The notes: generated from the sequence alone by a model not told the origin. A DNA stretch of 64,000 nucleotides from Candidatus Heimdallarchaeota archaeon (GCA_011364965.1 RDOB01000002.1:545849-609848); one strand, 5' to 3'; counted from the stretch's first letter, positions 10,941 through 25,387 are shown. Made by a program: numbers and translations.

Positions 10941-12278
10941 ATGAAAGATGATATTTTTTCACAATATGATCCTCTAGAAGAAGCTTTGCAAGAGGGTATC
11001 AATCCTGAGGAGTATATTATCGGGAGTTACATGGTTCAACTTGGTCCCAGAATGGATCCATGGTACCTGGGTCGTGCAGCAGCTTGTGAACAGTCTACAG
11101 GTACTTGGGTTCCTGTACCAGCTAATACTCCTGAGCTTCGTGCGAGATTTGGAGCAAAAGTTATCGGAATTTACGAAGTTCCCAGTTATGAATTTGAAAT
11201 CCCTAAAGATGTTGAAGAACGTAATTATATTTATCAAATTGCATTTCCTGCGCTGAATCAGATTAATTCTATAGGTTTAATGTTAACAGCGGTTCATGGA
11301 AACATCAGCATGGGCGGAAAACTTAAATTATTGGACATACGTTTCCCTAAAAAATGGATAAAACAATTTCAAGGTCCAAAATTTGGTATTGAGGGAATTC
11401 GAAAACTTTTGAAGGTACCTGACCGTCCATTACTTAATAACATGATAAAACCTTGCTCTGGTTGGACCCCAGAAGTGGGAGCCCAACTTTTATATTCTGC
11501 TGCGTTAGGAGGCTGCGATGTAATAAAGGATGACGAATTAATAGCTGATATGGATTATAACAGGATTATAGATCGTGTACCACTGATGATGGAGGCAATA
11601 GACAAAGTTAGAGATGAAACTAATGAAGAAACTCTGTACACGTGCAATATTACCGACAATTTAACCAAACTCAAACAGAATGCACTTGCTGTTCAGGATG
11701 CAGGGGGCAATGCACTCATGCTTAATTATCTTGTTGTCGGACTTCCTGCCTTACGTATGCTAGCTGAAGATCCAGATATTAAATTACCGATTCTAGCTCA
11801 TATGGATTTTGCAGGAGCTTTTTATGAAAGTCCATATTCAGGTGTTTCTTCTTTTCTAATCATGGGAAAATTTGCTCGACTTGCAGGAGCAGACATTGTT
11901 GTTTATCCCGCCCCATATGGCAAAGCACCTTTTTTAAAAGAAAAATACATGGGTTTAGCAAAAGCGCATCGTTATCGAATGCACCATTTAAAACCAACCC
12001 TACCAATGCCCTCTGGAGGGATTACACCTGGGATGGTCTTACGAGTGATGCAAGATCTTGGAAATGATGTCATGATAGGCTCAGGTGGAGGAATACATGC
12101 ACACCCAGATGGACCAGTAGCTGGCGCAAGAGCATTTCGGCAAGCTATTGAGATTGGGATGAATGACATGGTCAAAGCGAGTGAGGATTTTGAGGATTAC
12201 GTTGAGGATCATGAGGATAGCTACCCTGAACTAGCTCGAGCGATGGAAACTTGGGGAGTCGCAGATACGAGATTCTAA
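10941..12278 (+). CDS. RuBisCO-like protein (form IV RLP)
   Basis: EQSTGTW, MIKP, DVIKDDE, SGG and GGGIHAHPDG motifs; AHMDFAGA in place of the HRAxH of true RuBisCO. Confidence 0.88.
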   Translation: MKDDIFSQYDPLEEALQEGINPEEYIIGSYMVQLGPRMDPWYLGRAAACEQSTGTWVPVPANTPELRARFGAKVIGIYEVPSYEFEIPKDVEERNYIYQIAFPALNQINSIGLMLTAVHGNISMGGKLKLLDIRFPKKWIKQFQGPKFGIEGIRKLLKVPDRPLLNNMIKPCSGWTPEVGAQLLYSAALGGCDVIKDDELIADMDYNRIIDRVPLMMEAIDKVRDETNEETLYTCNITDNLTKLKQNALAVQDAGGNALMLNYLVVGLPALRMLAEDPDIKLPILAHMDFAGAFYESPYSGVSSFLIMGKFARLAGADIVVYPAPYGKAPFLKEKYMGLAKAHRYRMHHLKPTLPMPSGGITPGMVLRVMQDLGNDVMIGSGGGIHAHPDGPVAGARAFRQAIEIGMNDMVKASEDFEDYVEDHEDSYPELARAMETWGVADTRF

Positions 12279-12377: not shown

Positions 12378-14141
12378 GTGAATTTAATTTTGAGATTTAA
12401 TGGTTACATTTTGTTTGGAATAACGTTAATTTTACTTTCAAATATATCCATGAATTCATATATAGAAATATCTGATGATTCATTTTCTAAATTTCACGTT
12501 AACGGTTATATTTCGTCTGAAACGATAGCACCAAAGGTTGAAATCGAAATTGCTCTGATAGATCAGGAAACCAACCAAATTATGGCTGAACCAACAGTAG
12601 TTAAGGTTCTAGTAATTAATGTTCAAGATAGTGGAACAGCTAATGATTGGATTGAAATCGCCAAAATCGAAAATGCTGATATAATAATTGCTGATGAAAC
12701 AGGATTATGGGGAAAAGATAACGATGCAATGCTTAATGAAATCCTTGCAGAACTGAATGCCAATTTTCCTACAGAAACACCCTATACTGGATATGCTTTG
12801 CATGGTCAAGAACGAGCAAGTGAGGGTGAGGCTGTTATTACGCGTTTTCCTATTGTGAGAGCTACGGAAGTTAAAGAATTTATTGCAGACGATGGAACCA
12901 TAATCAATCCATATTATCATGTTATTGATGTTGAAATTAATATCAGTGGTGTCGTTACTCACGTAGTGGGGGCTCGATTGCAGTGTTGTGGAGATGAAAG
13001 AGGTTATATGGATAGTAAAGATCCTCCCAAACGCCGTGCTATAGATCATGAGGGATATGTAAACTATCTTGACTCGCTTGGCTCAGTGCCAATTCTCTAT
13101 GGTGGGGATTTAAATTCTTATTCACCTTATGATGTTGGTGAGATTGCGCCTAGCGAAGCAAATTTAGGAGCTGCCCCAATATCAATGCTTGTTAATTCTT
13201 CATATCCAACTGCATCTGAAAATCATTCTTGGGTAGATGTATATCGTGAGACCAATCCTTACGATAAAGGGTATACTTATGTTGATTGGCAATATCAGAG
13301 TCGCATAGATTATCTTTTTGTTAATGATTTCTTTCACGATAAACTAATCAACTCCACTGTTTTACCCTTTCCTCCTGATATTACTCCTCCTGATCATTTT
13401 CCTCTTGTCGCATTCTTTAATATGAATCCTGAGCTAGCAGATCTACGTCCCCCTATTAAAATACATAATATTAGGGGAACAATAATTAATAGTACGAGTA
13501 TCAATATAACCTGGGATTCTAATCCTGAAGTAGATTTAACTGAATATATTATTCATAAAGATGATTTAGAAATCGATCGGGTGACAACTCCTAACTATGT
13601 TGATAGCACGCTAGTTCCTGGTCAAATTTACCGATTTCGTGTATCTGCAATAGATACTAGCAATAATATTGGAGCTAAATCCATTCTTTTCATTCTTAAT
13701 ACGACTTTCGGGATTTGTCGGACACCTGGACCCCCTGTATTAACAGCTACAGGAGGAATAAATAACAATACGTTATCTTGGATTTTGAATGATAATGGAG
13801 GTCTTCCAGTAACAGGATATCAACTATACAGAATTTATACATATCCCTCATCTGGTTATGAATTGATTCATCGTTATCCTACTGGTATTTCCGCTGGAAT
13901 CTTCCCACCTGAGCAAACTACTTTTATTGATACAGGAGTTGCACCAGGAAGGACGTATCGCTATTTAATTACTGCTCTCAATGAGCTGGGAGAAGGAGTA
14001 AAATCTGAGATTGCCTTTGGGACAGTTTTAACCTCCCCTACGACAACAACGACTGATGGGGCTCCTACATTTGGTTTCAGTATAATTCCGATTGCTTTTA
14101 CACTAACTTTGATTACGATTTATAGAAAAAAAAGAATTTAG
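12378..14141 (+). CDS. Secreted, surface-anchored endonuclease/exonuclease/phosphatase (EEP) protein with two FN3 domains
   Basis: Signal peptide; GGDLNS, SRIDYLFV, PDHFP motifs; FN3 W...Y.F/Y patterns; Thr-rich linker, TM and basic tail. Confidence 0.82.
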   Translation: MNLILRFNGYILFGITLILLSNISMNSYIEISDDSFSKFHVNGYISSETIAPKVEIEIALIDQETNQIMAEPTVVKVLVINVQDSGTANDWIEIAKIENADIIIADETGLWGKDNDAMLNEILAELNANFPTETPYTGYALHGQERASEGEAVITRFPIVRATEVKEFIADDGTIINPYYHVIDVEINISGVVTHVVGARLQCCGDERGYMDSKDPPKRRAIDHEGYVNYLDSLGSVPILYGGDLNSYSPYDVGEIAPSEANLGAAPISMLVNSSYPTASENHSWVDVYRETNPYDKGYTYVDWQYQSRIDYLFVNDFFHDKLINSTVLPFPPDITPPDHFPLVAFFNMNPELADLRPPIKIHNIRGTIINSTSINITWDSNPEVDLTEYIIHKDDLEIDRVTTPNYVDSTLVPGQIYRFRVSAIDTSNNIGAKSILFILNTTFGICRTPGPPVLTATGGINNNTLSWILNDNGGLPVTGYQLYRIYTYPSSGYELIHRYPTGISAGIFPPEQTTFIDTGVAPGRTYRYLITALNELGEGVKSEIAFGTVLTSPTTTTTDGAPTFGFSIIPIAFTLTLITIYRKKRI

Positions 14142-14776: not shown

Positions 14777-15070
14777 TCATTCTCTCCCTCCTGCAACTGG
14801 GGGAAAAATTGATATAATATCATTATCTAGTATGACAGTGTTTAGTCCTTGAAGATATTTAATATTTCTCCCGTTGATTAATATATGATTCCATTCTTTG
14901 AGGGAATAGTCTTCATTGACTAGAATATCTTTTATTTCGGGTAATTTATAACAGATTACTTTCAATAAATGCAAAATGGTGGAATTTTCGTCTAATGCCA
15001 AGGTTAACTGGTTATTTTTAGTAAGGTGTCTAAAAGTAGCAAAAAAATTGACTTGAACCAGAATGCTCAC
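14777..15070 (-). CDS. moaD: MoaD/SAMP ubiquitin-like sulfur carrier with C-terminal GG-RE extension
   Basis: FFATFR, ILINGRNI, ISIFPPVAGG(RE); last gene of the AOR operon. Confidence 0.85.
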   Translation of the reverse strand: MSILVQVNFFATFRHLTKNNQLTLALDENSTILHLLKVICYKLPEIKDILVNEDYSLKEWNHILINGRNIKYLQGLNTVILDNDIISIFPPVAGGRE

Positions 15071-15103
15071 AATTAATTCTCTCTGAATATTTTTTTCAAC
15101 GAT

Positions 15104-16807
15104 TTAGCTTTCTGATTTTGCTTGCTCTTCTCGTCTTAGTTTTTTCTTATCAAGCTTCATGACTGATGTTAGGGGTAATTGATTTCTAAACTCGACGCTT
15201 TTTGGAATTGCATACGGAGGAAGTTTTTCTTTGCAGTAATTAATAATATCCTCTTCAGTAACCTGATCGTGATCGGATTTTAAAACTAAAAATGCTTTCA
15301 CTCGTTCACTCCCAGGTCGTTCTGGATCTGGAATACCTATAACTCCTGCGACATTAACAGCTGGATGAGCATATAACACATCATCAACTGTTTGAGAATA
15401 AACTTTCATTCCAGAAACATTAATCATGTCTTTGATCCGATCTACGATATGAAAGTATCCCTCTTCGTCAATTTTTCCGATATCGCCTGTAGCAAGCCAA
15501 CCTGCGTCATCTAAACCCGATCCTGGAGTCGGCCAGTAACCTTTCATCACCTGAGGTCCGCGAATCCATAATTCTCCTGGATTTCCAGGACTACATTCTT
15601 CTCCAGTATCGGGATCAATCAACTTTACTTCAGTATCTGGAATAGGAATTCCAATTCCTACTTTTACCTTGGGGATAAATCCAGTAACCTTTGACAATCC
15701 AGATAGATTTAAATGAGTACATGCAGTCGCTTCACTCATTCCATATCCTTCTCCTAATGGAATCCCAATTTTCTTTTCCCATTGTTTTGCGACGTCTCTC
15801 GGAAGAGCTGCTGCTCCAGAAAAAAAGAAAACAGGCATTTTTGGGAGATCTGAATTTAAGAGAAGGGTATAATGGGTAGGAACGCCTCCAACCATGAATG
15901 GGCGATATTTTTTGATGGTTTGAGTAATTGTATTTAAGTCTCTTGCGTCAACAAGTAAAATCCTCAATCCCCATGATATACACGCATGCATCATCCAATG
16001 TCCCATTTGATGGAATATTGGAACCATGATCACAACAGCAGCTTTTCCAATAACTCCAGTCCGTAAGGGATGAACCATCCAATGGAATGCTTGTACAACA
16101 TTGGTCGTAACATTTGCGTGAGTCAACATTGTTGCTTTTGGCATTCCTGTTGTACCCCCAGTAAAGGGTAAAAGGGCTAAATCTTCCTGAGGAATAATTT
16201 TTAAAGTGGGTGGAGGTAATTTGTCATAATACTTTTCTGTTAACTCTTTCATTGAATGCAAATTGCTTATACTCGGTAAGACAGTAGTATCTGGTATTGT
16301 ATAATCAGGAAAACTCGGAACTTGTGTATAAATTACGTGATCGATCTGGATTTGTTCTTGTATTGCTACAATTCTATCCAATCGCCTATAAGAACAAATT
16401 ATTATCCTAGATCTCGTTTGTTGTACTTCATATAGCAATTCAGGAGCCTGATGCAATATACTTAATGGAGCATGGATTCCACCAGCTTTCATTATTGCAT
16501 AATCAGCAATTATGAATTGGGGGCAAGAGGGAAGAATTGTAATAACTATATCTCCTTTTTCTACTCCGATGTCTACTAAAGCTGCAGTAAAAGCATCAAC
16601 TTCATTCTTTAGCTCTTTATAAGTCATTTCGGACAGAAAATTTTCTCCTAAGAATGTACATGCGATATTGTCTGGGTAAGTCTTTGAAGAATCATCTAAA
16701 AATTGATAAACTGGGATATTGGGGTAAGGAGCCATTGAATGTGGCAATTTAAAAGGGCCAATTTTATAATTTTTTAACCAAGGTTTCTCAACAGACAAAA
16801 ATTTCAC
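15104..16807 (-). CDS. Long-chain fatty acid-CoA ligase (AMP-binding family)
   Basis: FTGGTTGMPK, EGYGMSE, TGDIG, DRIKDMI motifs. Confidence 0.88.
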   Translation of the reverse strand: MKFLSVEKPWLKNYKIGPFKLPHSMAPYPNIPVYQFLDDSSKTYPDNIACTFLGENFLSEMTYKELKNEVDAFTAALVDIGVEKGDIVITILPSCPQFIIADYAIMKAGGIHAPLSILHQAPELLYEVQQTRSRIIICSYRRLDRIVAIQEQIQIDHVIYTQVPSFPDYTIPDTTVLPSISNLHSMKELTEKYYDKLPPPTLKIIPQEDLALLPFTGGTTGMPKATMLTHANVTTNVVQAFHWMVHPLRTGVIGKAAVVIMVPIFHQMGHWMMHACISWGLRILLVDARDLNTITQTIKKYRPFMVGGVPTHYTLLLNSDLPKMPVFFFSGAAALPRDVAKQWEKKIGIPLGEGYGMSEATACTHLNLSGLSKVTGFIPKVKVGIGIPIPDTEVKLIDPDTGEECSPGNPGELWIRGPQVMKGYWPTPGSGLDDAGWLATGDIGKIDEEGYFHIVDRIKDMINVSGMKVYSQTVDDVLYAHPAVNVAGVIGIPDPERPGSERVKAFLVLKSDHDQVTEEDIINYCKEKLPPYAIPKSVEFRNQLPLTSVMKLDKKKLRREEQAKSES

Positions 16808-16879
16808 CCCAAGAAGATAATTCTCGTAGTTTATTAATTTAAAACTTTGCAGATAAAAAGAATGGGATTAGGTTTTTGT

Positions 16880-18736
16880 TTAAATCTTTACCCAATCCAA
16901 ATTAAGTCTCTCGAGGGTGGCTGAGGTTGGTTTACCATCAATATCCCACCCTCGATATTCATAATAGGAGTCTAAAAGGGGCTCTAAATCTACAATATGG
17001 CCCTTTGCAGGCCCTTCGGGAAGAGGTTCCTCAAGTAAACGCTTTGGGAGGGTATCGTTAGCTCTAGTTAAACCTTCACGTATATTGTATAGTCTCTGAA
17101 GATTAAAAATACGTTCGCCCAATATCCTAAAATCAGATTCCGAAAATTCATATCCCATAAGTGTTTCAATCATTTTAGCCCAATCCTCTCCAGTGAGGAC
17201 CATACCCATGAATTTACATCCCCCTATGGAATCAAATACACCAAAAGCGTTTTCATAATCCATAAGAATTTTTGTATCTTCTTTGCTTGCTTCTAACTCA
17301 TCACTAAGTTCTGCGTCTACAATCAGAAAAGGCATTGAAAGAAAAGTTGGGCCTTCTATAAAAGAAGTCATGTGATCTCCCCCTCGATTCGCTGTTGCAA
17401 AACCCAAACCAGTAATTTTTGCTGCTCGGCTATCATATGCAGGTAGTTCTAAACCTTTTACATGCATAGCAAAAGCTTCTGAACCATGACCGAGTTTTTC
17501 AGACATTTTTTTAGAACCTTCTGCAAGTAAGTTCCCAATTCCTTCTCTCTTGGCTATCAAATGTACCATTTTAATTAAAACATCCGAATCACCAAATTTA
17601 ATCTCTATATTCTCTGTTTCTTTGAGAGTTAAGATTTTTTTCTCAAAACATTCCATAGAGAAAGCAATTGTCGCACCTGCAGAGATAGTATCTAATCCAT
17701 ACTCATTACATAAGAAATGGGCGAATGTTATAGCTTCTAGATTATCAATATCACACATACTTCCGAGGGAGCAAAGAGATTCATATTCAGGTCCTTCACC
17801 TTTGCTTTGATAGGTACCTTCCTTAATCTCTGATATACGGCCACAATGAATTGGACAAGCGAAACAAGGTTTTTGATCTACTAAAATATTATCATTAATT
17901 GCAGTACCATTTATATTGTCAGCTCCTTTAAACACACCAGTTTGAAAGTTTCGTGTAGGGAATCCTCCTTTAACATTTACCATATCAAGCATAGTTGCTG
18001 TCCCAAAAACTTCCAAACTCATTTTTAGCAGACTTTGGTTCACCCAATCAAATCTTAATTTAGCTTCCTCACGATATTTTTCATTATCAGCCACCTCAAT
18101 CTTCGCAGTCCCTCTAACAGCAATTGCTTTTAATTTTTTGGATCCCATTACTGCTCCTAAGCCACATCTACCCGCAGCACGTCCCCAATGTGGTTCATCA
18201 GCGTCATTAATAATTGCAGCATATTTTACTAGGTTTTCCCCGCCAATCCCGATTGTCGCAACATTAAATTTTCCTCCTAATTCCTGTCTAATTAATTTAG
18301 TAGTTTCAGAAGTATTTTTTCCCCAAAGGTGACTAGCATCCATTAACCTGGCTTTTCCTTCATCTAATACTAGAAAAACTGGTGTTTCTGAAATACCTTC
18401 AAAAATCACTCCATCAAATCCAGCTCTTTTAAAATCACGTCCCCAATAGCCTCCTGAATTTGCGTGCCCCCATAGTCCAGTGAGAGGGGATTTGGCCACG
18501 ACTGAATATCTCCCTGTGCTAGGAGCTGATGTTCCCGTCATTGGACCAGTCATGAATATCAATTTATTTTCAGGACCCAATGGGTCAATTCCTGCTTTTA
18601 CCTCATCGAATAAATATTTTGTGGCTAACCCACATCCCCCTAGATACAGTTTTAACGTTTCTTCGTCAGGAAATTCCTCTGTTATAGTTCCAGCGGTTAG
18701 GTTTACACGTAATAATTTTTTCATATAACCATACAT
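16880..18736 (-). CDS. aor: Tungsten-dependent aldehyde:ferredoxin oxidoreductase
   Basis: AKSPLTG, GRCGLGAVMGSKKLKA, CFACPIHC, GPEYE, GLDTIS motifs. Confidence 0.93.
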   Translation of the reverse strand: MYGYMKKLLRVNLTAGTITEEFPDEETLKLYLGGCGLATKYLFDEVKAGIDPLGPENKLIFMTGPMTGTSAPSTGRYSVVAKSPLTGLWGHANSGGYWGRDFKRAGFDGVIFEGISETPVFLVLDEGKARLMDASHLWGKNTSETTKLIRQELGGKFNVATIGIGGENLVKYAAIINDADEPHWGRAAGRCGLGAVMGSKKLKAIAVRGTAKIEVADNEKYREEAKLRFDWVNQSLLKMSLEVFGTATMLDMVNVKGGFPTRNFQTGVFKGADNINGTAINDNILVDQKPCFACPIHCGRISEIKEGTYQSKGEGPEYESLCSLGSMCDIDNLEAITFAHFLCNEYGLDTISAGATIAFSMECFEKKILTLKETENIEIKFGDSDVLIKMVHLIAKREGIGNLLAEGSKKMSEKLGHGSEAFAMHVKGLELPAYDSRAAKITGLGFATANRGGDHMTSFIEGPTFLSMPFLIVDAELSDELEASKEDTKILMDYENAFGVFDSIGGCKFMGMVLTGEDWAKMIETLMGYEFSESDFRILGERIFNLQRLYNIREGLTRANDTLPKRLLEEPLPEGPAKGHIVDLEPLLDSYYEYRGWDIDGKPTSATLERLNLDWVKI

Positions 18737-19006
18737 AAATTATGCACCTTTTGTCAAATTTAACAGTTAATTTTTGTGTGATTTTCGTTTTGAGTTTATT
18801 AACATTCCTGTTACAAATATCGCTTTAGATTTCCCTAATCTTGGTAATATATTATCAAGAGGTAGATTTAAGATCGAATTTCTAAAGCTCTCTCTAGCAC
18901 TAATTCACAAAATTATCTCAATGTCTCGGTGATTCTAGTGCCGGGAAACGATAATTATGGGATTAATTCTAGGAAAACAATAGTACATGAACAAACCAAG
19001 GTAAAG

Positions 19007-19453
19007 ATGATTAATATGAGTGAAAAAGTAATATTTCCATCCAAAGAATGGGTAGCTAAATTTAAGGATGTCGTTAATTCTAGTAAAGATTATGAAGAAG
19101 CAGCTAAAACTTGGGAAGGTGATTTCATTTTTGAGATCATTCCTGATGGAACTAGAAATTTATCCGAAAAACATCAATTATATTGTGATTTATGGCATGG
19201 AAAATGTCGTGATGCGTTTCTAGTATCCACTGAACAACCAGCTCCTGAAAAAGTAGAATATATATACTCTGGAAAATATAATAATTGGCTAGCTCTCTTT
19301 GATGGAAAGGTGGGCCCTCTAAAAGGAATTATGCAAAGAAAATTTACAGTAACTTGCTCTCCTGGTGCAATGGCAAGATTAATGAAGGCTTTAAAAGCAG
19401 CTCAAGAACTGGTTAAATGTACTACAATGGTAGAAAATGTGGAATATATATAA
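19007..19453 (+). CDS. SCP2 sterol/lipid-binding domain protein
   Basis: FPSKEW...YEEAAKTWEGDF...DLWHGKC...PLKGIMQRK, typical of archaeal SCP2-like proteins. Confidence 0.78.
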   Translation: MINMSEKVIFPSKEWVAKFKDVVNSSKDYEEAAKTWEGDFIFEIIPDGTRNLSEKHQLYCDLWHGKCRDAFLVSTEQPAPEKVEYIYSGKYNNWLALFDGKVGPLKGIMQRKFTVTCSPGAMARLMKALKAAQELVKCTTMVENVEYI

Positions 19454-19468
19454 CGGAGAAATTTTGAC

Positions 19469-20647
19469 ATGTGGGATTTTACATCTCCGAGGAAAGTTAT
19501 TTTCGGAGAAGATGCATTAGAATACTTGTCTGAGTTATGTTTCGAAAATGTATTCATTGTTACAGATCCTACGATTAAAACCATGCATCTAGAAAAAATT
19601 TTGGCCCAATTAGGAGACTCAAAAGTAACTGTTTTTGACAAAGTATCAGGTGAACCCTCCCTTGATACAGTAAAAGATGGGGCGTGTTCCATGATTGAAG
19701 CAAAACCAGATGTCATTATTGCTCTAGGTGGTGGTAGTGTACTCGATTCTGCTAAGGGAATGTTTCCTATCTATTCACAACCCGACATCCTGATAGATGG
19801 CTTGTCTCCTTTTGAAGTCTTGGACATGCGGAAGAAAACAAATTGCATTTTAATTAACATTCCTACTACAAGTGGAACAGGAGCTGATGTGACTTGGGCG
19901 ATTGTTCTAACTGATTTATCTGAAGGTACTCCTAGGAAGATATCCCTAGCAAATCGCGAATTGGTAGCTGATATTACTATCTTAGATCCGGTATTAACTA
20001 AGACAATGACACCCCGTTTGATTGCAGGAACTGGTATGGATGCAATGTGTCATGCTATAGATGGTTATCTCTCAACATGGAGAAATGATTTTTCTGATGC
20101 ATTATCATTGCATGCTTTCAAACTTTTATGGAATAATTTACCAATAGCATTCGAGCAAGCAAAAGTAGGAGAGGTAGATTTCGCAATTCGTGAAAAACTC
20201 CATAATTCTGCAACTATGGCTGGTTGGGGTTTCGGGAATTCCCAGATTATTCTTTCTCATTCATTAGCACATACAATAGGAGCTGTTTTCAAAATCCCTC
20301 ATTCTGTGTGTATTGGTGCAATGTGCTGGTATTCTCTCATGTTCAATCAAAATTATGAATCCGAACGAATCTGTGATCTTGCGAAATTGGTTGGATACAC
20401 TGGAACAGCAGGAGAAATAGTTACAAATTTCGTCAGTTCTTTCAAAGAACTTTTGTTGAATTTGGAACTTCCGTTATCATTACTTGAAATGAAAGTCACC
20501 GAAGAAGAATTTCAATCGAATCTTGAAGATCTAATTGCTTTTGCAGAAAATGATTCTGGAACGCTATCCAATCCGAGATCTATTGCTCATGATGATTTTA
20601 TCACAATCTTCAAATGTGTTTTCGAAGGAAAAGATATCGATTTTTAA
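19469..20647 (+). CDS. Iron-containing alcohol dehydrogenase
   Basis: GGGSVLDSAK, PTTSGTG, DAMCHAID, HSLAH, H..C metal ligands. Confidence 0.92.
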   Translation: MWDFTSPRKVIFGEDALEYLSELCFENVFIVTDPTIKTMHLEKILAQLGDSKVTVFDKVSGEPSLDTVKDGACSMIEAKPDVIIALGGGSVLDSAKGMFPIYSQPDILIDGLSPFEVLDMRKKTNCILINIPTTSGTGADVTWAIVLTDLSEGTPRKISLANRELVADITILDPVLTKTMTPRLIAGTGMDAMCHAIDGYLSTWRNDFSDALSLHAFKLLWNNLPIAFEQAKVGEVDFAIREKLHNSATMAGWGFGNSQIILSHSLAHTIGAVFKIPHSVCIGAMCWYSLMFNQNYESERICDLAKLVGYTGTAGEIVTNFVSSFKELLLNLELPLSLLEMKVTEEEFQSNLEDLIAFAENDSGTLSNPRSIAHDDFITIFKCVFEGKDIDF

Positions 20648-20753
20648 CCCGTATTACTTTGAAATTTGGCAATATACTTCATTAGACTTATAGATATAAA
20701 AGAATAATCCAAAATTGATGTAATTGATTCATCTTTAGGAGTGTTTAATACAA

Positions 20754-21131
20754 ATGGTAAATGAGGATCTATTAAGAACATTATTTGTTAAAAAATCGCT
20801 TAAAAATACCGAAAATGGTTTCCAGATGCAGATGCAAAACAGTATTAGTGATGCTACTATCATTGAACCAATAAAAGTTGAAATTTCAGGTGAAGGAGTA
20901 GATAAAGAGAAGTATAAGGATTTTATAATCGATTTAAATGGCGAGAAAGTCGAGAATAAAACAATTAGCGAATCCAATCCCGCTAAATTCTCAGTTAAAG
21001 CTCTAGCGACTTTAATATTCAATAGAGACAGTCCATTGCCAGAAGGGAAATATAAAATTCGGTTTACAAAGCTTCTGACTGAAGAATATGGTGATATTCC
21101 TTTCACAATGAAGGAAAGAATACGAGACTAG
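20754..21131 (+). CDS. Hypothetical beta-rich protein
   Basis: 125-aa ORF with SD AGGAG; no recognised motif. Confidence 0.7.
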   Translation: MVNEDLLRTLFVKKSLKNTENGFQMQMQNSISDATIIEPIKVEISGEGVDKEKYKDFIIDLNGEKVENKTISESNPAKFSVKALATLIFNRDSPLPEGKYKIRFTKLLTEEYGDIPFTMKERIRD

Positions 21132-21330
21132 CTAATCTCTTTATTCTATTTTTTTATTTCAATTTACTTGATCCTTTTCAACTTCAATAAGCAGAAATTC
21201 TAGATAAAAATCTTGAATTTTGATTTATTCATTCAAATCTTAGATCCCTAGAAATATTCTTAAGACTAGACTCCGTGTTCATCCTTCAATTTATTATATT
21301 ATTTTTAGTTTCAGAGGTTGAATTATTAAA

Positions 21331-22707
21331 ATGGACCACAAGCAAAAAAGATTATTTTCAGATGAAGAGATTTTATCTTGGATCGGGGAAGTTACTGATC
21401 AAGAAATAAATGAGGTACACCAAAAATCATTAGTTCCATTTTATGATCAGATTTGGGAATCTGGAGATAGCTCTTATCTTAAGCAATATAAAACAGACAA
21501 AGAGTTTCTTGATTGCACTTCCCAAGCATGGACATCAAATATCGGTTTCTCTAATCCAGATGTTGCGTTTGCAGTGAGCCATCAACTAAAAACGTTAAGT
21601 CATGTTCGTTATGGATTTGCTACAAAACCCCGAATTAAATTCATCCATAAAATCACAAGTTTAACCCCAGGTAACTTGAAAAAAGTAGCAGCGAATGCCA
21701 TGGGTGGTGGAGCTAGCATAGAGGCTGCATTGAGGTTAGCAATGATAAATAAACCTGGAGCTCAACAGTTCTATACCTATACAAGAAGCTACCATGGTAG
21801 TTCCTTAGCGACAATGTCTCTTTCAACACGTTTTGCAGGAGTAACTAGATTCAAACCCTGGGGTCTTGATAGAGTGGCAAAAATACCTTTTCCCTATTGT
21901 TACAGATGTCCTATGGGACAAGAAGGTGAGAATAAGTGCAATTTAGAGTGTTTAGAATTAGCTCAAAATTTAATTGAATATGGATCTGTGGATAAAGTTT
22001 GCGGAATTTTAATGGAACCTATACAAGGCCCAGGAGGACATGTTCCAGCTCCGAAACGATATATCAGAGAGTTGCGAAAATGGACTGAAAAAAACGAGAT
22101 TTTCTTTATCTGGGATGAAAGCCAGCTATTCACTCGGATTGGCCATTGGTTTACTTCTGAATATTATGAAGGTGTGACTCCAGATATAACATGTCTAACG
22201 AAGGCAATAGGAGGATCCCTTCCAATGGGGGTTACAATAGCTCGTGAAGACATCAATGGTTTTAATTCTGCCGAGGAACATAGTACATTTGGAGCGAATC
22301 CTTTAATGTTTGCTGCTAGTATGGTTTTTATGAATTATGTAGAGCGAGCAGACTTATTGAAAAACACTCGTGAACAAGGAGATTACATAACTTCTAAACT
22401 TCGAAATTTACAGAAAAGATATGATTATATTGGGGATATACGGTGCCCCGGATTAATGATTGGGATAGAGCTAGTAAATGATCCAGAAACTAAAACTCCT
22501 GGAAATACTCTGGCAGCGGACCTAGTAGAAGAAGCTATGGATCAAAGGGTAATTTTTGGACTTATGGCTCCAATATCAACTGATTCAGGCAAATTATTTA
22601 GGAATGTGGTCAAAATTAAACCCCCTCTAATAATAACTCGTGAAGAGTCAGATCACATTCTGAATGTCTTTGAATCTTCCTTAGAAGAAGCCATTGATTA
22701 TCTTTAG
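21331..22707 (+). CDS. Class-III PLP-dependent aminotransferase-fold enzyme (possible phospho-lyase)
   Basis: SYHGSS, EPIQG, WDESQ, LTKAIGG (PLP Lys), STFGANP, RNVVKIKPPL. Confidence 0.88.
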   Translation: MDHKQKRLFSDEEILSWIGEVTDQEINEVHQKSLVPFYDQIWESGDSSYLKQYKTDKEFLDCTSQAWTSNIGFSNPDVAFAVSHQLKTLSHVRYGFATKPRIKFIHKITSLTPGNLKKVAANAMGGGASIEAALRLAMINKPGAQQFYTYTRSYHGSSLATMSLSTRFAGVTRFKPWGLDRVAKIPFPYCYRCPMGQEGENKCNLECLELAQNLIEYGSVDKVCGILMEPIQGPGGHVPAPKRYIRELRKWTEKNEIFFIWDESQLFTRIGHWFTSEYYEGVTPDITCLTKAIGGSLPMGVTIAREDINGFNSAEEHSTFGANPLMFAASMVFMNYVERADLLKNTREQGDYITSKLRNLQKRYDYIGDIRCPGLMIGIELVNDPETKTPGNTLAADLVEEAMDQRVIFGLMAPISTDSGKLFRNVVKIKPPLIITREESDHILNVFESSLEEAIDYL

Positions 22708-22731
22708 TAAAATTTTTTTGAGGTGATATAA

Positions 22732-24336
22732 ATGAGTAATGGATTGTTTTTATCTTATGATTTAGGTACCACTGCAACAAAGGCTGTTCTTATATCCAAT
22801 AATATCAAGTTTCTTGCGTCTTCAGTTGCGCAATATGATACAATTTTTCCTAAACAAGGTTATGCAGAACATGACCCGAAGGATTGGTGGCGTACGCTGA
22901 AATCTACAACTATCGATCTTGTATCAAAGACAAACACCAATCCTGAGGATATTGCAGCAATAACTTTTAGTTCTCAAATGCAAGGTCTGTTACCAGTTGA
23001 TAGAAACTGCAATCCTTTGATGAATGCAATGATCTGGCTTGATGGTCGTGGAGTGAAATATTTAAAAAAGGTATTTCCATGGCCAAGAATAATGGGATAT
23101 AATCCTTATCGTCTATTCCTTAAATTCCTTAAAATAACTGGTGGGTCTCCTGGGTTATCTGGAAAAGATCAGATTCCCAAAATTATATGGTTAAAGCACG
23201 AAGCACCCGACATATACGATCAAACGTACAAATTTTTGGATGTAAAGGATTATATCATATACAAACTGACTGGCGAGGTAGCTACTTCAACTGATCTTGC
23301 ATATGTCTGGTGGTTAATGGATTCTCGCAAAAAAGATGGTAAGCCAATTAATGAATGGTCAAAAAGTTTATGTGAAATGTATAAAATCGACATGGATAAA
23401 TTACCTGAGATTAAAAGGCCTACCGACATTATAGGTAATGTATCAGCTTCAGCTGCCCAAGAATTAGGGCTCAGTACAGGTATTCCAGTTGTCTGTGGCG
23501 CAGGGGATATGACTTCAGGTGCAATTGCCTCGGGTGCTTGTCTAGATGGAGAGCTACATTGTCAGATTGGCACATCAGGTTGGGTTGCAGGTCATGTTCG
23601 TGAAAGAAGAGTAAATATCACCGCATACACTGGATGTGTGGGTAGTGCGCTTCCAGATCAATTTTACCTAGTTACTGGCCATCAAGAAATCGCAGGTGCA
23701 TGTTTGGAATGGGTAAAAAACAATATTCTATATTTTAAGGAGCAATTAGAAGAAACAGAGAAGAAAGAAGTATATCAGATCTTTGATAATCTTGTCTCAG
23801 AATGCGAACCTGGTGCCAAAGGAGATGGTGGAACCTATTTAATGTTCCTCCCGTGGTTGCATGGAGAAAGATGTCCTTTAGATGATGATAATGTAAGAGG
23901 TGGTTTGATTAATCTCAGTTTAGATCATGATCGTCGTCATTTACTTAGAGCAGTTTTTGAGGGAGTAGCAATGAATGCTCGATGGGCTTTAGATACTGTT
24001 GAAAACCTATATTCCTCCGTTGATTGGCTTGCGATTATTGGAGGAGGAGCTAAATCAGATGTTTGGTGTCAGATATATGCAAATGTCATGAATCGCCAAA
24101 TCAAACGTGTTGAAAATCCTCAAGAAGCTGGAGCATTAGGAGCTGGGATAATTGCTAAACTCGCACTTGGAGAAATACGTGATGTGTCCGGGATCAAAGA
24201 ATATTGTCATTATGATCATGAATTCCGACCTGATCCTAAGTATAGAGACCTTTATGATAATCTTTACAAAGAATTTAAACAAATATACAAACAGAATAAA
24301 AATTGGTTTAAGAGGATGAATAAAAACAAGAGTTAA
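22732..24336 (+). CDS. FGGY-family kinase (xylulokinase-like)
   Basis: DLGTTATK, GAGD, GTSGW, FLPWLHGERCP, GGGAKS. Confidence 0.9.
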   Translation: MSNGLFLSYDLGTTATKAVLISNNIKFLASSVAQYDTIFPKQGYAEHDPKDWWRTLKSTTIDLVSKTNTNPEDIAAITFSSQMQGLLPVDRNCNPLMNAMIWLDGRGVKYLKKVFPWPRIMGYNPYRLFLKFLKITGGSPGLSGKDQIPKIIWLKHEAPDIYDQTYKFLDVKDYIIYKLTGEVATSTDLAYVWWLMDSRKKDGKPINEWSKSLCEMYKIDMDKLPEIKRPTDIIGNVSASAAQELGLSTGIPVVCGAGDMTSGAIASGACLDGELHCQIGTSGWVAGHVRERRVNITAYTGCVGSALPDQFYLVTGHQEIAGACLEWVKNNILYFKEQLEETEKKEVYQIFDNLVSECEPGAKGDGGTYLMFLPWLHGERCPLDDDNVRGGLINLSLDHDRRHLLRAVFEGVAMNARWALDTVENLYSSVDWLAIIGGGAKSDVWCQIYANVMNRQIKRVENPQEAGALGAGIIAKLALGEIRDVSGIKEYCHYDHEFRPDPKYRDLYDNLYKEFKQIYKQNKNWFKRMNKNKS

Positions 24337-24358: not shown

Positions 24359-25387
24359 TCATATGCTAGCTTTTGCTAAATCGTTTGGAAATTTCATCTG
24401 TAAATATCCATGTATTTCCGAGCTATCCACGATCTCAGGTTTTATATCAAAGTCAGGGAAGTGCATCCTTGTCCAAAGGACAAGATCTTTTCCGATTTGA
24501 ACACTTTTTCTCATTGAATCTGATTCCTCAACAATTAAAATCACTGAGAAATCAGCTTCTTCGACTCTTACTAACTTATAATTGTCCGAAACTTCATCAT
24601 CACCAGCACTTTCACTGCGTTTCATTAGAATTTCTCTAACTCCAGCTCCAAGACTTGCTTGTGCGAATGTATTTACTGCAGAAAACATGCTAGTAATAAG
24701 AGAGGGATCTTCCATGAGATGTCCGTGGTTTGAATTTGTAGAGCTGCTTCCTACTAATAATCCAGATTCAGTTTGATAAATGCAAACATTATGGATGTTA
24801 ATTGTGGGTAGAATTATCTCACCTGTCATTGTTTCAATAAGCCAATCAAAAGCTTGGTACAGGTTACTTCCAGTCTTTGCGCTCATATGAAAAATGTTAA
24901 CAGCTCGGAATCTACCTTTTTGTTGAATATCGTACAGATCAAAATGCTTTAAAAGTAATACATAAGGGTCTACACCAGATATGTCTGCTTTATTCGCAGC
25001 TATAAGAAGAACTGCTTTTTCAGGAATATCTGGAAGTGCTTTATATAGCGCCGTTTTACTCTCTTCAAAATCCTCCGGTCTTGAACAATCTACAACAAAT
25101 ACAACAGCTCCTGAAAGCCTTACGTAATCTGGCCAAATTTCTTGAAATGTAGTCTGCCCACCTAAGTCGAACGCTTGAAATATGATATTTCTGTACTCAA
25201 ATCGTTCAACGTTCAGTCCCATGGTTCTAAGAGAATCGGCATAAAACTCTCCCGTACGCAATCGGTGGAGAATGGTAGTTTTACCTGCATAAGCTCGACC
25301 GATGAAAGTTATTAGCTCGTTCTTTCCTGCATTAGAGGATTGGATTTTTTTAGAATGTCGGCGGAATAACCTTTTCAGTAATGAGAT
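24359..25387 (-). CDS. Arf-family small GTPase fused to a C-terminal longin/roadblock-like domain; probable ATC start
   Basis: Frame is open upstream of 25261: ISLLKRLFRR...GRAYAGKTT (G1), DLGGQ (G3), NKAD (G4), SAK (G5). SD GGAGG lies 8 nt before ATC at 25387. C-terminal VCIYQTESGLLV..DPSLITSMFSAV. Confidence 0.88.
   Translation of the reverse strand: MSLLKRLFRRHSKKIQSSNAGKNELITFIGRAYAGKTTILHRLRTGEFYADSLRTMGLNVERFEYRNIIFQAFDLGGQTTFQEIWPDYVRLSGAVVFVVDCSRPEDFEESKTALYKALPDIPEKAVLLIAANKADISGVDPYVLLLKHFDLYDIQQKGRFRAVNIFHMSAKTGSNLYQAFDWLIETMTGEIILPTINIHNVCIYQTESGLLVGSSSTNSNHGHLMEDPSLITSMFSAVNTFAQASLGAGVREILMKRSESAGDDEVSDNYKLVRVEEADFSVILIVEESDSMRKSVQIGKDLVLWTRMHFPDFDIKPEIVDSSEIHGYLQMKFPNDLAKASI

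Follow-up and report, generated by a model that had tools for sequence, protein, structure and literature searches.

A class III pyridoxal phosphate enzyme, an FGGY kinase and a RuBisCO-like protein form a probable conserved module in Asgard archaea, with a possible role in amino-alcohol catabolism

Among described systems, the class III pyridoxal 5'-phosphate (PLP) enzymes ETNPPL (6TOR), PHYKPL and the Arthrobacter phospho-lyase A1RDF1 (5G4I) come close to the one reported here, with which they share the class III fold, a C-terminal motif in which Lys replaces Arg, and pairing with a kinase. In this study, we report the analysis of a window of 64,000 nucleotides (nt) from Candidatus Heimdallarchaeota archaeon (GCA_011364965.1 RDOB01000002.1:545849-609848; positions are counted from its first letter). 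It holds genes for a class III (fold type I) PLP enzyme (21331-22707, plus strand; PF00202, E 2.8e-73), an FGGY-family, XylB-like kinase (22732-24336, plus strand; PF00370 and PF02782) and a form IV RuBisCO-like protein (RLP) of 445 amino acids (aa) (10941-12278, plus strand; Pfam RuBisCO_large and RuBisCO_large_N). A first-pass annotation of positions 14777-24336 had proposed an undescribed pathway for lipid amino alcohols; the RLP gene fell outside its coordinates because it lies 9 kb upstream, past an unrelated gene with fn3 and endonuclease/exonuclease/phosphatase (EEP) domains. In the ETNPPL, PHYKPL and 5G4I systems the partner kinase is of the APH/hydroxylysine-kinase type and often fused, whereas here it is of the FGGY family and a phosphate-dependent RLP is co-conserved. 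A second group of known enzymes, BioA and the omega-amine transaminases, has N-terminal motifs in common with the PLP enzyme, including the pocket Trp, and acts on amines that lack an alpha-carboxylate, but keeps the conserved Arg whose place is taken by Lys428 here.

With respect to the RLP, the closest solved relative is the MtnW/YkrW enolase (G. kaustophilus 2OEK, B. subtilis 2ZVI; E 1e-73), which matches it in the metal site of carbamylated Lys, Asp and Glu, in the K175 equivalent and in a second phosphate site turned hydrophobic. The RLP differs from it by Asn in place of Lys98, by E60 and a loop-6 Lys that MtnW lacks, by a score under the NCBIfam cut-off (PRK09549, 334 bits; cut-off 409) and by a neighbourhood without methionine-salvage genes. 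Form III RuBisCO (Thermococcus kodakarensis 3A13, of the archaeal AMP/nucleoside pathway) has the N-terminal and barrel domains and a nearly full catalytic set in common with the RLP, in which, by contrast, Cys stands for K177 and Met, Ala and Val for the ligands of the second phosphate; the rubisco_III model TIGR03326 gave 246 bits (cut-off 497), and no gene for AMP phosphorylase or ribose-1,5-bisphosphate isomerase lies beside the RLP gene. Finally, an RLP-dependent catabolism of D-apiose reportedly employs the kinase OiaK with the RLPs OiaX/OiaC; the kinase is said to make a phospho-keto acid-sugar that the RLP then decarboxylates or cleaves. The kinase of that pathway is of the DUF1537 type rather than FGGY, and it has no amine-handling step. 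The score of the RLP against the OiaX model was 160 bits, the cut-off being 700. No published description of a module of PLP enzyme, FGGY kinase and RLP was found in the literature searched, so that the pathway appears to be undescribed, as had been suggested.

The genes of the window were taken from a list of open reading frames (ORFs) and assigned by Pfam and NCBIfam scans. The PLP enzyme and kinase genes are separated by exactly 24 nt (22708-22731, plus strand), the distance given in the first-pass annotation; reading of this spacer revealed a Shine-Dalgarno ribosome-binding site, GAGGTGAT, 4 bases upstream of the kinase ATG, and the two genes are one bicistronic unit. Their conservation was studied in 80 loci around relatives of the PLP enzyme and in seven annotated loci, which were searched for the window proteins by tblastn and with hidden Markov models (HMMs). 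Clade A was defined as the relatives with at least 43% identity to the PLP enzyme of the window, without the Loki-type subclade. Of its 24 distinct loci, 19 have an FGGY gene after the PLP gene, and two of the other five have about 1 kb of downstream sequence. In 14 clade-A loci an RLP ortholog lies within 10 kb of the PLP gene, colinear with the pair. This co-location was seen in Hodarchaeales/Heimdall, Odin, Baldr, Jord/Frey, Scotarchaeum and Thermoflexus/Anaerolineae, and in Baldrarchaeota, Scotarchaeum, Thermoflexus and Anaerolineae they run co-directionally in the order PLP enzyme, kinase, RLP.

Physical linkage is not the only sign of association. All five genomes with a solitary PLP gene, among them Lokiarchaeum ossiferum and an Atabeyarchaeia chromosome, carry orthologs of the RLP (52-57% identity) and of the FGGY kinase (35-42%) elsewhere. 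We also sampled 121 Asgard genomes, of which 59 have an RLP ortholog (at least 600 bits against the profile of the RLP family) and 40 a clade-A PLP enzyme. Of these 40 genomes, 32 have the RLP and three a truncated or split one, while none was found in the remaining five, which are metagenome-assembled genomes 75-94% complete. Among 20 loci centred on RLP orthologs from at least 10 Asgard families, 9 have an FGGY gene at a distance of no more than 10 kb. The PLP enzyme and the FGGY kinase, which had been put forward as functional partners, thus constitute a real conserved pair from Asgard archaea to Chloroflexi, and it is very probable that they belong together with the RLP as one module.

The PLP enzyme presents a catalytic Lys291 (TKA motif), the stretch R424-N-x-x-K428-I-K430-PPL, H91 and R93, W67 and four invariant Cys. 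Both motifs on which the first-pass annotation relied are in the translation (FRNVVKIKPPL at residues 423-433 and LSHVRYGF at 89-96), and alignment bore out its comparison with known phospho-lyases, ETNPPL and 5G4I having the same exchange of Lys for Arg: RNVVKIKPPL aligned with RNVLKIKPPM of human ETNPPL (6TOR) and with DNVLKMRPPL of the Arthrobacter enzyme, while the Pyrococcus Ala/Ser racemase (GNVIRITPPL) and Ile 2-epimerase (GNILRFQPPL) have Arg at the position of the first Lys. K430, R424, N425, H91, R93 and the Schiff-base K291 are invariant in 14 diverse relatives and K428 nearly so, position 428 being Thr in the Jord/Frey members. A tree that included 81 full-length relatives from public genomes placed the Lys-x-Lys state in one monophyletic clade of about 60 loci; the next group outward, mostly of Bathyarchaeota (31-34% identity), has the usual Arg and is devoid of R93. 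To judge from alignment and tree, the Lys-x-Lys motif is not due to chance.

The affinities of the enzyme as a whole are different from those of its C-terminal motif. Against the PDB, the archaeal class III protein 7VNO gave 173 bits, Ile 2-epimerase 164 and BioA 150 (144-173 for archaeal class III enzymes, racemases and BioA), and ETNPPL (6TOR) only 126; the fused-kinase model PRK06148 was matched only via its aminotransferase part (176 bits; cut-off 1128). The N-terminal substrate region aligned best with BioA (DCTSQAW with DGMSSWW, SHVRYGF with SHVMFGG), and DCTSQAW, SHVRYGF, WDESQ (D-E-x-Q) and HST, motifs of the BioA/amine-transaminase type, are invariant or nearly so. The carboxylate-binding Arg of class III omega-aminotransferases is missing (K428, or Thr in Jord/Frey), and the second Arg of gamma-aminobutyrate (GABA) and ornithine transaminases is replaced by Ser (YHGSS). 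These comparisons point to an enzyme of the archaeal class III and BioA/omega-transaminase types, and the membership in the ETNPPL/PHYKPL family that had been suggested for it fails on overall similarity and on the BioA-like N-terminal region. The sequence speaks for an amine substrate without alpha-carboxylate and for a cationic pocket, and is compatible with both a lyase and a transaminase; no residue-level rules for phospho-lyases came out of the structural papers searched.

The four Cys of the PLP enzyme (C190, C193, C203 and C207 in PYCYRCP...C...EC; residues 189-208, window 21895-21954) are invariant in clade A and kept in the Arg-type Bathyarchaeota relatives, but gone from several bacterial members. 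They may represent a metal or iron-sulphur site of archaeal class III enzymes.

The score of the kinase against the xylulokinase (XylB) model TIGR01312 was 299 bits, under the cut-off of 380, and its best PDB match was the gluconate kinase 3GBT. The genome has four FGGY paralogs, none of which reaches the XylB cut-off. The identity of a plain xylulokinase is not supported by these matches.

The active site of the RLP was read from its alignment to G. kaustophilus MtnW (2OEK) and from a family alignment of ten sequences from five lineages, with residues given in RuBisCO numbering. The protein keeps E60, T65, W66, N123, K175, K201, D203, E204, H294, the loop-6 Lys (K334) and S379-G-G, as well as the GGG of the first phosphate site; the metal and K175 motifs read KDDE and IKPC. 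K177 is changed to Cys (KPC for KPK), and in the second phosphate site Met, Ala and Val take the places of R295, H298 and H327 (HMDFAG and VVYPAPYGK). All the active-site residues listed are invariant in the ten sequences. The general base Lys98 of MtnW (G. kaustophilus numbering) is Asn (HGNISM versus FGKLSL) in all ten, as in true RuBisCO. From this site, the RLP should bind a monophosphate next to a 2-keto-3-hydroxy unit, with a tail free of phosphate; the far end of the substrate is expected to lack phosphate because the second phosphate site consists of Met, Ala and Val.

Second copies and interrupted forms of the RLP gene were also found. Another contig of the source genome holds a second RuBisCO-family gene (G000:C15:39674-40963), which scored 537 bits with the RLP profile and probably encodes an RLP paralog rather than a form III enzyme; genome G067 has a similar second copy. 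The RLP ortholog appears to be split in two pieces in Lokiarchaeum ossiferum CP104013.1 (4487132-4488353; in-frame TAG) and in Atabeyarchaeia-1 CP147779.1 (2712485-2713643), both complete genomes that have kept the PLP enzyme and the FGGY kinase, and truncated copies are present in G028 and G043.

Evidence on the step that precedes the kinase came from module loci without a PLP gene. In four of them (L093, L097, L099 and L101), a gene of approximately 405 codons for a saccharopine-dehydrogenase-like protein is placed directly upstream of the FGGY gene. These four proteins contain both saccharopine-dehydrogenase domains and are 53-54% identical to one another; in L093 (7019-11295) the genes for dehydrogenase, kinase and RLP come in this order, 62 and 95 nt apart. 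Among solved structures, the L093-type protein is closest to saccharopine and carboxyspermidine dehydrogenases. Enzymes of these two kinds interconvert C-N bonds and carbonyls with NAD(P), with no phosphate involved. We read the dehydrogenase-like protein, from its domains and position, as a putative unrelated stand-in for the PLP enzyme in the same slot. If this reading is right, the step before the kinase most likely converts an amine into a carbonyl, which a transaminase does and a phospho-lyase need not do; elimination of phosphate at this point is unlikely.

Taking these data together, we propose the following chemistry, in which reaction types, order and substrate are inferred and to which we give a probability of about 0.45. 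The PLP enzyme would transaminate an amino-alcohol or amino-polyol, in the simplest case a 2-amino-1,3-diol, to a ketone flanked by hydroxyls. The FGGY kinase would phosphorylate a terminal hydroxyl to give the 1-phosphate, the order of these two steps being open. The RLP would then enolise the 1-phospho-2-keto-3-hydroxy head, similar to that of ribulose 1,5-bisphosphate, and isomerisation, cleavage or carboxylation would follow. A 2-amino-1,3-diol deaminated at C2 and phosphorylated at C1 has exactly the head group predicted for the RLP. Transporters found in or beside module loci, of the MFS (L085, L015), SBF (L101, inside the unit) and Opp/Dpp (permease, L093) types, suggest an imported soluble or amphipathic amine. 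For a long-chain substrate of the sphingoid type the chance is roughly one in five, and no lipid gene recurs outside Hodarchaeales among the module loci surveyed.

Some observations weigh against this proposal. Residue 428, where a carboxylate-binding Arg is usual, is Lys in the PLP enzyme and likewise in the lyases ETNPPL and 5G4I, which leaves K428 unexplained in a transaminase, an enzyme that needs to bind a keto-acid acceptor. As many as 27 of the 59 RLP-positive Asgard genomes have no clade-A PLP enzyme, and only 3 of the 20 RLP-centred loci have a PLP gene within 10 kb. One family (f16) retains the PLP gene with an RLP that is split, truncated or missing. In addition, the bacterial Lys-x-Lys clade (clade B) is often paired with FGGY genes (14 of 33 loci) and never accompanied by RLP; therefore the PLP/FGGY pair can work without the RLP, as a kinase/lyase pair would.

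This bacterial sister clade (35-40% identity) comprises members from Solirubrobacterales, Sphingomonadales, Anaerolineae and Rokubacteria, with FGGY kinases 24-29% identical to that of the window; the FGGY-adjoining loci are L046, L050, L067 and 11 others. Annotation of L050, L059 and L067 turned up LysR with pyruvate kinase, a PotA-like ABC transporter, and an MFS transporter with DUF1349, none of which is diagnostic of a known pathway.

The alternative that best survives is the model of the first-pass annotation, in which the kinase phosphorylates an amino alcohol or lipid headgroup and an ETNPPL-like PLP enzyme eliminates phosphate and ammonia to leave an aldehyde or ketone; downstream, an aldehyde:ferredoxin oxidoreductase (AOR) would oxidise or an iron-containing alcohol dehydrogenase (Fe-ADH) reduce this product, an acyl-CoA ligase would activate the acid and an SCP2 protein would carry the lipid. 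It agrees with the near-identity of RNVVKIKPPL to the ETNPPL motif and the Lys of 5G4I, with the Arg at the HVRY position, which ETNPPL also has (TNSRF in the 6TOR alignment), and with the kinase pairing throughout the Lys-x-Lys clade, RLP-free bacteria included, which mirrors the known kinase/phospho-lyase pairs; all the downstream enzymes that it calls for are in the window and in four relatives. Nevertheless, we consider it unlikely. Besides the weaker match to ETNPPL, the BioA-like N-terminal region, the Thr428 of the Jord/Frey members and a partner kinase that is FGGY rather than APH/HYKK, the co-conserved RLP keeps its phosphate site and would be left without a substrate once phosphate had been eliminated. 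The dehydrogenase-like oxidoreductase that takes the place of the PLP enzyme in other genomes also speaks against it, and AOR, ligase, SCP2 and ADH are co-conserved in one lineage only. Phosphate elimination by the PLP enzyme is consequently not supported, given the phosphate site kept in the RLP and the dehydrogenase in the same slot.

Less probable still is a salvage of 5-deoxy or 5-methylthio pentoses derived from S-adenosylmethionine by-products, in which the FGGY kinase would yield a 5-substituted ribulose 1-phosphate, the RLP would isomerise or cleave it, like the RLPs of methionine salvage and of the isoprenoid shunt, and the PLP enzyme would aminate the final keto acid. MtnW/YkrW enolases are indeed nearest to the RLP among solved and curated proteins, and the hydrophobic second site of the RLP resembles that of MtnW; genes of the IF-2B family and of class II aldolase exist elsewhere in the genome, and a Nit-family amidase (L015) and a class I/II aminotransferase (L009), each in a single locus, presumably recall mtnU and mtnE. 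Against this, Asn replaces the MtnW base Lys98 in all ten RLP sequences aligned, and the neighbourhood is free of mtn genes. Without the alpha-carboxylate Arg, a class III enzyme is poorly suited to alpha-amino acid synthesis, and both the replacement by a dehydrogenase and the place of the PLP gene at the head of operons fit an entry step better than an exit.

We regard as improbable, and more so than the salvage route, that the module is biosynthetic, with the RLP and the kinase supplying a keto-phosphate that the PLP enzyme aminates to an amino-polyol phosphate, which might go into a lipid headgroup or a cofactor, for instance. In favour of this, transaminases can run in either direction, a phosphate ester could be bound in the Lys-x-Lys pocket and the module has the patchy distribution of an accessory trait; the transporters mentioned above, on the other hand, fit uptake and catabolism, no glycosyl- or acyl-transferases recur among the module loci and the PLP gene comes first in operons. 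That an ordinary omega-aminotransferase stands by chance beside an ordinary xylulokinase, with no common pathway, is very improbable, for although both families are large and generic and the genome has FGGY paralogs under the XylB cut-off, the two genes remain closely spaced neighbours from Asgard archaea to Chloroflexi, with protein identities of 35-47%, and there is phyletic co-occurrence with the RLP.

The remaining genes of the cluster are arranged divergently, and all those named in the first-pass annotation were confirmed within the coordinates it stated. The minus strand carries a small beta-grasp protein of the ThiS/MoaD/SAMP type (14777-15070; PF02597; best match NF041918 SAMP1 with 68 bits, TIGR01687 moaD_arch 59 bits), an AMP-forming, FadD-like acyl-CoA ligase (15104-16807; PF00501 and PF13193), whose best NCBIfam models are long-chain fatty-acid-CoA ligases, all far under their cut-offs, and an AOR of the tungstopterin family (16880-18736; PF02730 and PF01314). 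After a divergent spacer of 192 nt, the plus strand continues with an SCP2-domain protein (18929-19453; PF02036, a weak match of 26.5 bits for a cut-off of 21.3) and, 15 nt downstream, an Fe-ADH (19469-20647; PF00465 and PF25137), which reached no NCBIfam equivalog. The true start of the SCP2 gene is probably downstream of 18929, because its relatives are 141-146 aa long. A protein of 125 aa (20754-21131, plus strand; PF25653/PF19906) is encoded between the Fe-ADH and the PLP enzyme. There is a T-run downstream of the stop codon of its gene, and AT-rich promoter-like stretches precede both this gene and the PLP gene; the plus strand looks like three units, namely SCP2 with ADH, the 125-aa protein, and the PLP enzyme with the kinase.

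The flanking genes are conserved only among close relatives. In the loci surveyed, orthologs of the MoaD-type protein and of the ligase accompany the module only in L001/L006 and L008, those of the AOR (70-80% identity) only in L001/L006, L005 and L008, and those of the Fe-ADH only in L001/L006, L004, L005 and L008; an SCP2 HMM built from five orthologs matched only Hodarchaeales/Heimdall loci among 107 loci. The PLP enzymes of L001/L006, L004, L005 and L008 are 73-79% identical to that of the window. About 20 other loci with the PLP/kinase pair have none of AOR, ligase, MoaD, SCP2 and Fe-ADH, and the 20 RLP-centred loci are likewise free of SCP2, ADH, AOR, ligase, ThiS and the 125-aa protein. 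Since this co-conservation is found only in five closely related loci, it reflects shared ancestry and is not independent evidence, and the assignment of AOR, ligase, MoaD, SCP2 and Fe-ADH to the pathway did not hold beyond close Hodarchaeales/Heimdall relatives. On this distribution, AOR, ligase and MoaD, together with SCP2 and Fe-ADH, are best described as Hodarchaeales/Heimdall additions outside the conserved module. Synteny within that lineage suggests that SCP2/ADH and AOR/ligase might handle a hydrophobic tail fragment.

Other lineages have companions of their own. A class I/II aminotransferase (L009), a DUF2848 protein with the Nit amidase (L015) and a GNAT protein were found among them. 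In the Jordarchaeia locus L018 (6673-9836), a pair of 2-hydroxyacyl-CoA dehydratase genes with their activator directly precedes the PLP enzyme and the kinase, and in the Asgard contig L087 (6938-8371) a Pyridoxal_deC gene precedes those of the 125-aa protein, the PLP enzyme and the kinase. The latter was considered as a sphingosine-1-phosphate lyase and discarded, as it is of the aromatic-amino-acid decarboxylase type (4OBU, E 3e-111).

On either side of the genes described, an Arf-family GTPase (24359-25261, minus strand; its ORF as listed begins at TTG) comes right after the kinase, a position kept in all Hodarchaeales/Heimdall loci (67-73% identity), and the EEP and fn3 protein of 587 aa (12378-14141) that separates the RLP from the remaining cluster has a counterpart in no related locus. 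The GTPase, along with the naming of relatives, assigns the window to a Hodarchaeales (Asgard) genome.

The AlphaFold2 model of the 125-aa protein had a mean confidence (pLDDT) of 84.6, and its top Foldseek matches were beta subunits of C-glycoside deglycosidases (8UN2, 9M3A, 7BVS and 7BVR; probability 1.00, TM 0.5-0.65). The protein thus has the DgpC/DfgB/CarC beta-sandwich fold, and PF19906 gave 27.9 bits (cut-off 27.6). No gene for a xylose-isomerase-like alpha subunit was present among the annotated neighbours of the 125-aa gene, to which this search was confined, the rest of the genome not having been searched. Its family counts 379 cluster representatives, mostly stand-alone and of about 120 aa. 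The gene adjoins that of the PLP enzyme or of the RLP in 11 archaeal loci and in the independent metagenome contig L089, where it begins 15 nt after the RLP gene; in the Hodarchaeales loci and L087 it precedes the PLP gene, and in L002, L003 and L086 its neighbour is the RLP gene. Distant homologs lay mostly on contigs too short to show their surroundings. A search for proteins that join the 125-aa domain to the RLP, to the PLP enzyme or to the kinase gave none. Prediction of a complex between the RLP and the 125-aa protein gave a score of 0.01, for a mark of 0.32, which is no evidence either way. Our guess is that it could be an accessory subunit. The only fused form of the domain (PF25653) that was found is at the N-terminus of HMG-CoA reductases of approximately 515 aa in Acidobacteria (Pyrinomonadaceae).

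It can be speculated that the RLP truly carries out C-C cleavage or carboxylation of 1-phospho-2-keto-3-hydroxy compounds derived from 2-amino-1,3-diols such as sphingoid bases; the idea comes from the almost whole RuBisCO catalytic set that the RLP keeps and from the hydrophobic pocket at its second phosphate, and we hold it to be a long shot. If true, sphingolipid backbones could be turned into 3-phosphoglycerate and a fatty acid without oxygen, and the SCP2 protein, acyl-CoA ligase and AOR/ADH of Hodarchaeales would deal with the lipid tail.

RuBisCO-like proteins have repeatedly been found to catalyse unexpected chemistry. The RLP clade studied here is present in about half of the 121 Asgard genomes sampled and in Chloroflexi, and no paper was found that assigns a function to it. 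Its association with an FGGY kinase and with amine-removing enzymes that can stand in for one another leads to a prediction for its substrate, namely a monophosphate with a 2-keto-3-hydroxy head and a phosphate-free tail, derived from an amino alcohol. Establishing the reactions of the module would show whether the exchange of Lys for Arg in class III PLP enzymes predicts lyase chemistry, and how anaerobic sediment archaea near the eukaryotic ancestor feed on amine-bearing compounds, possibly including lipid backbones.

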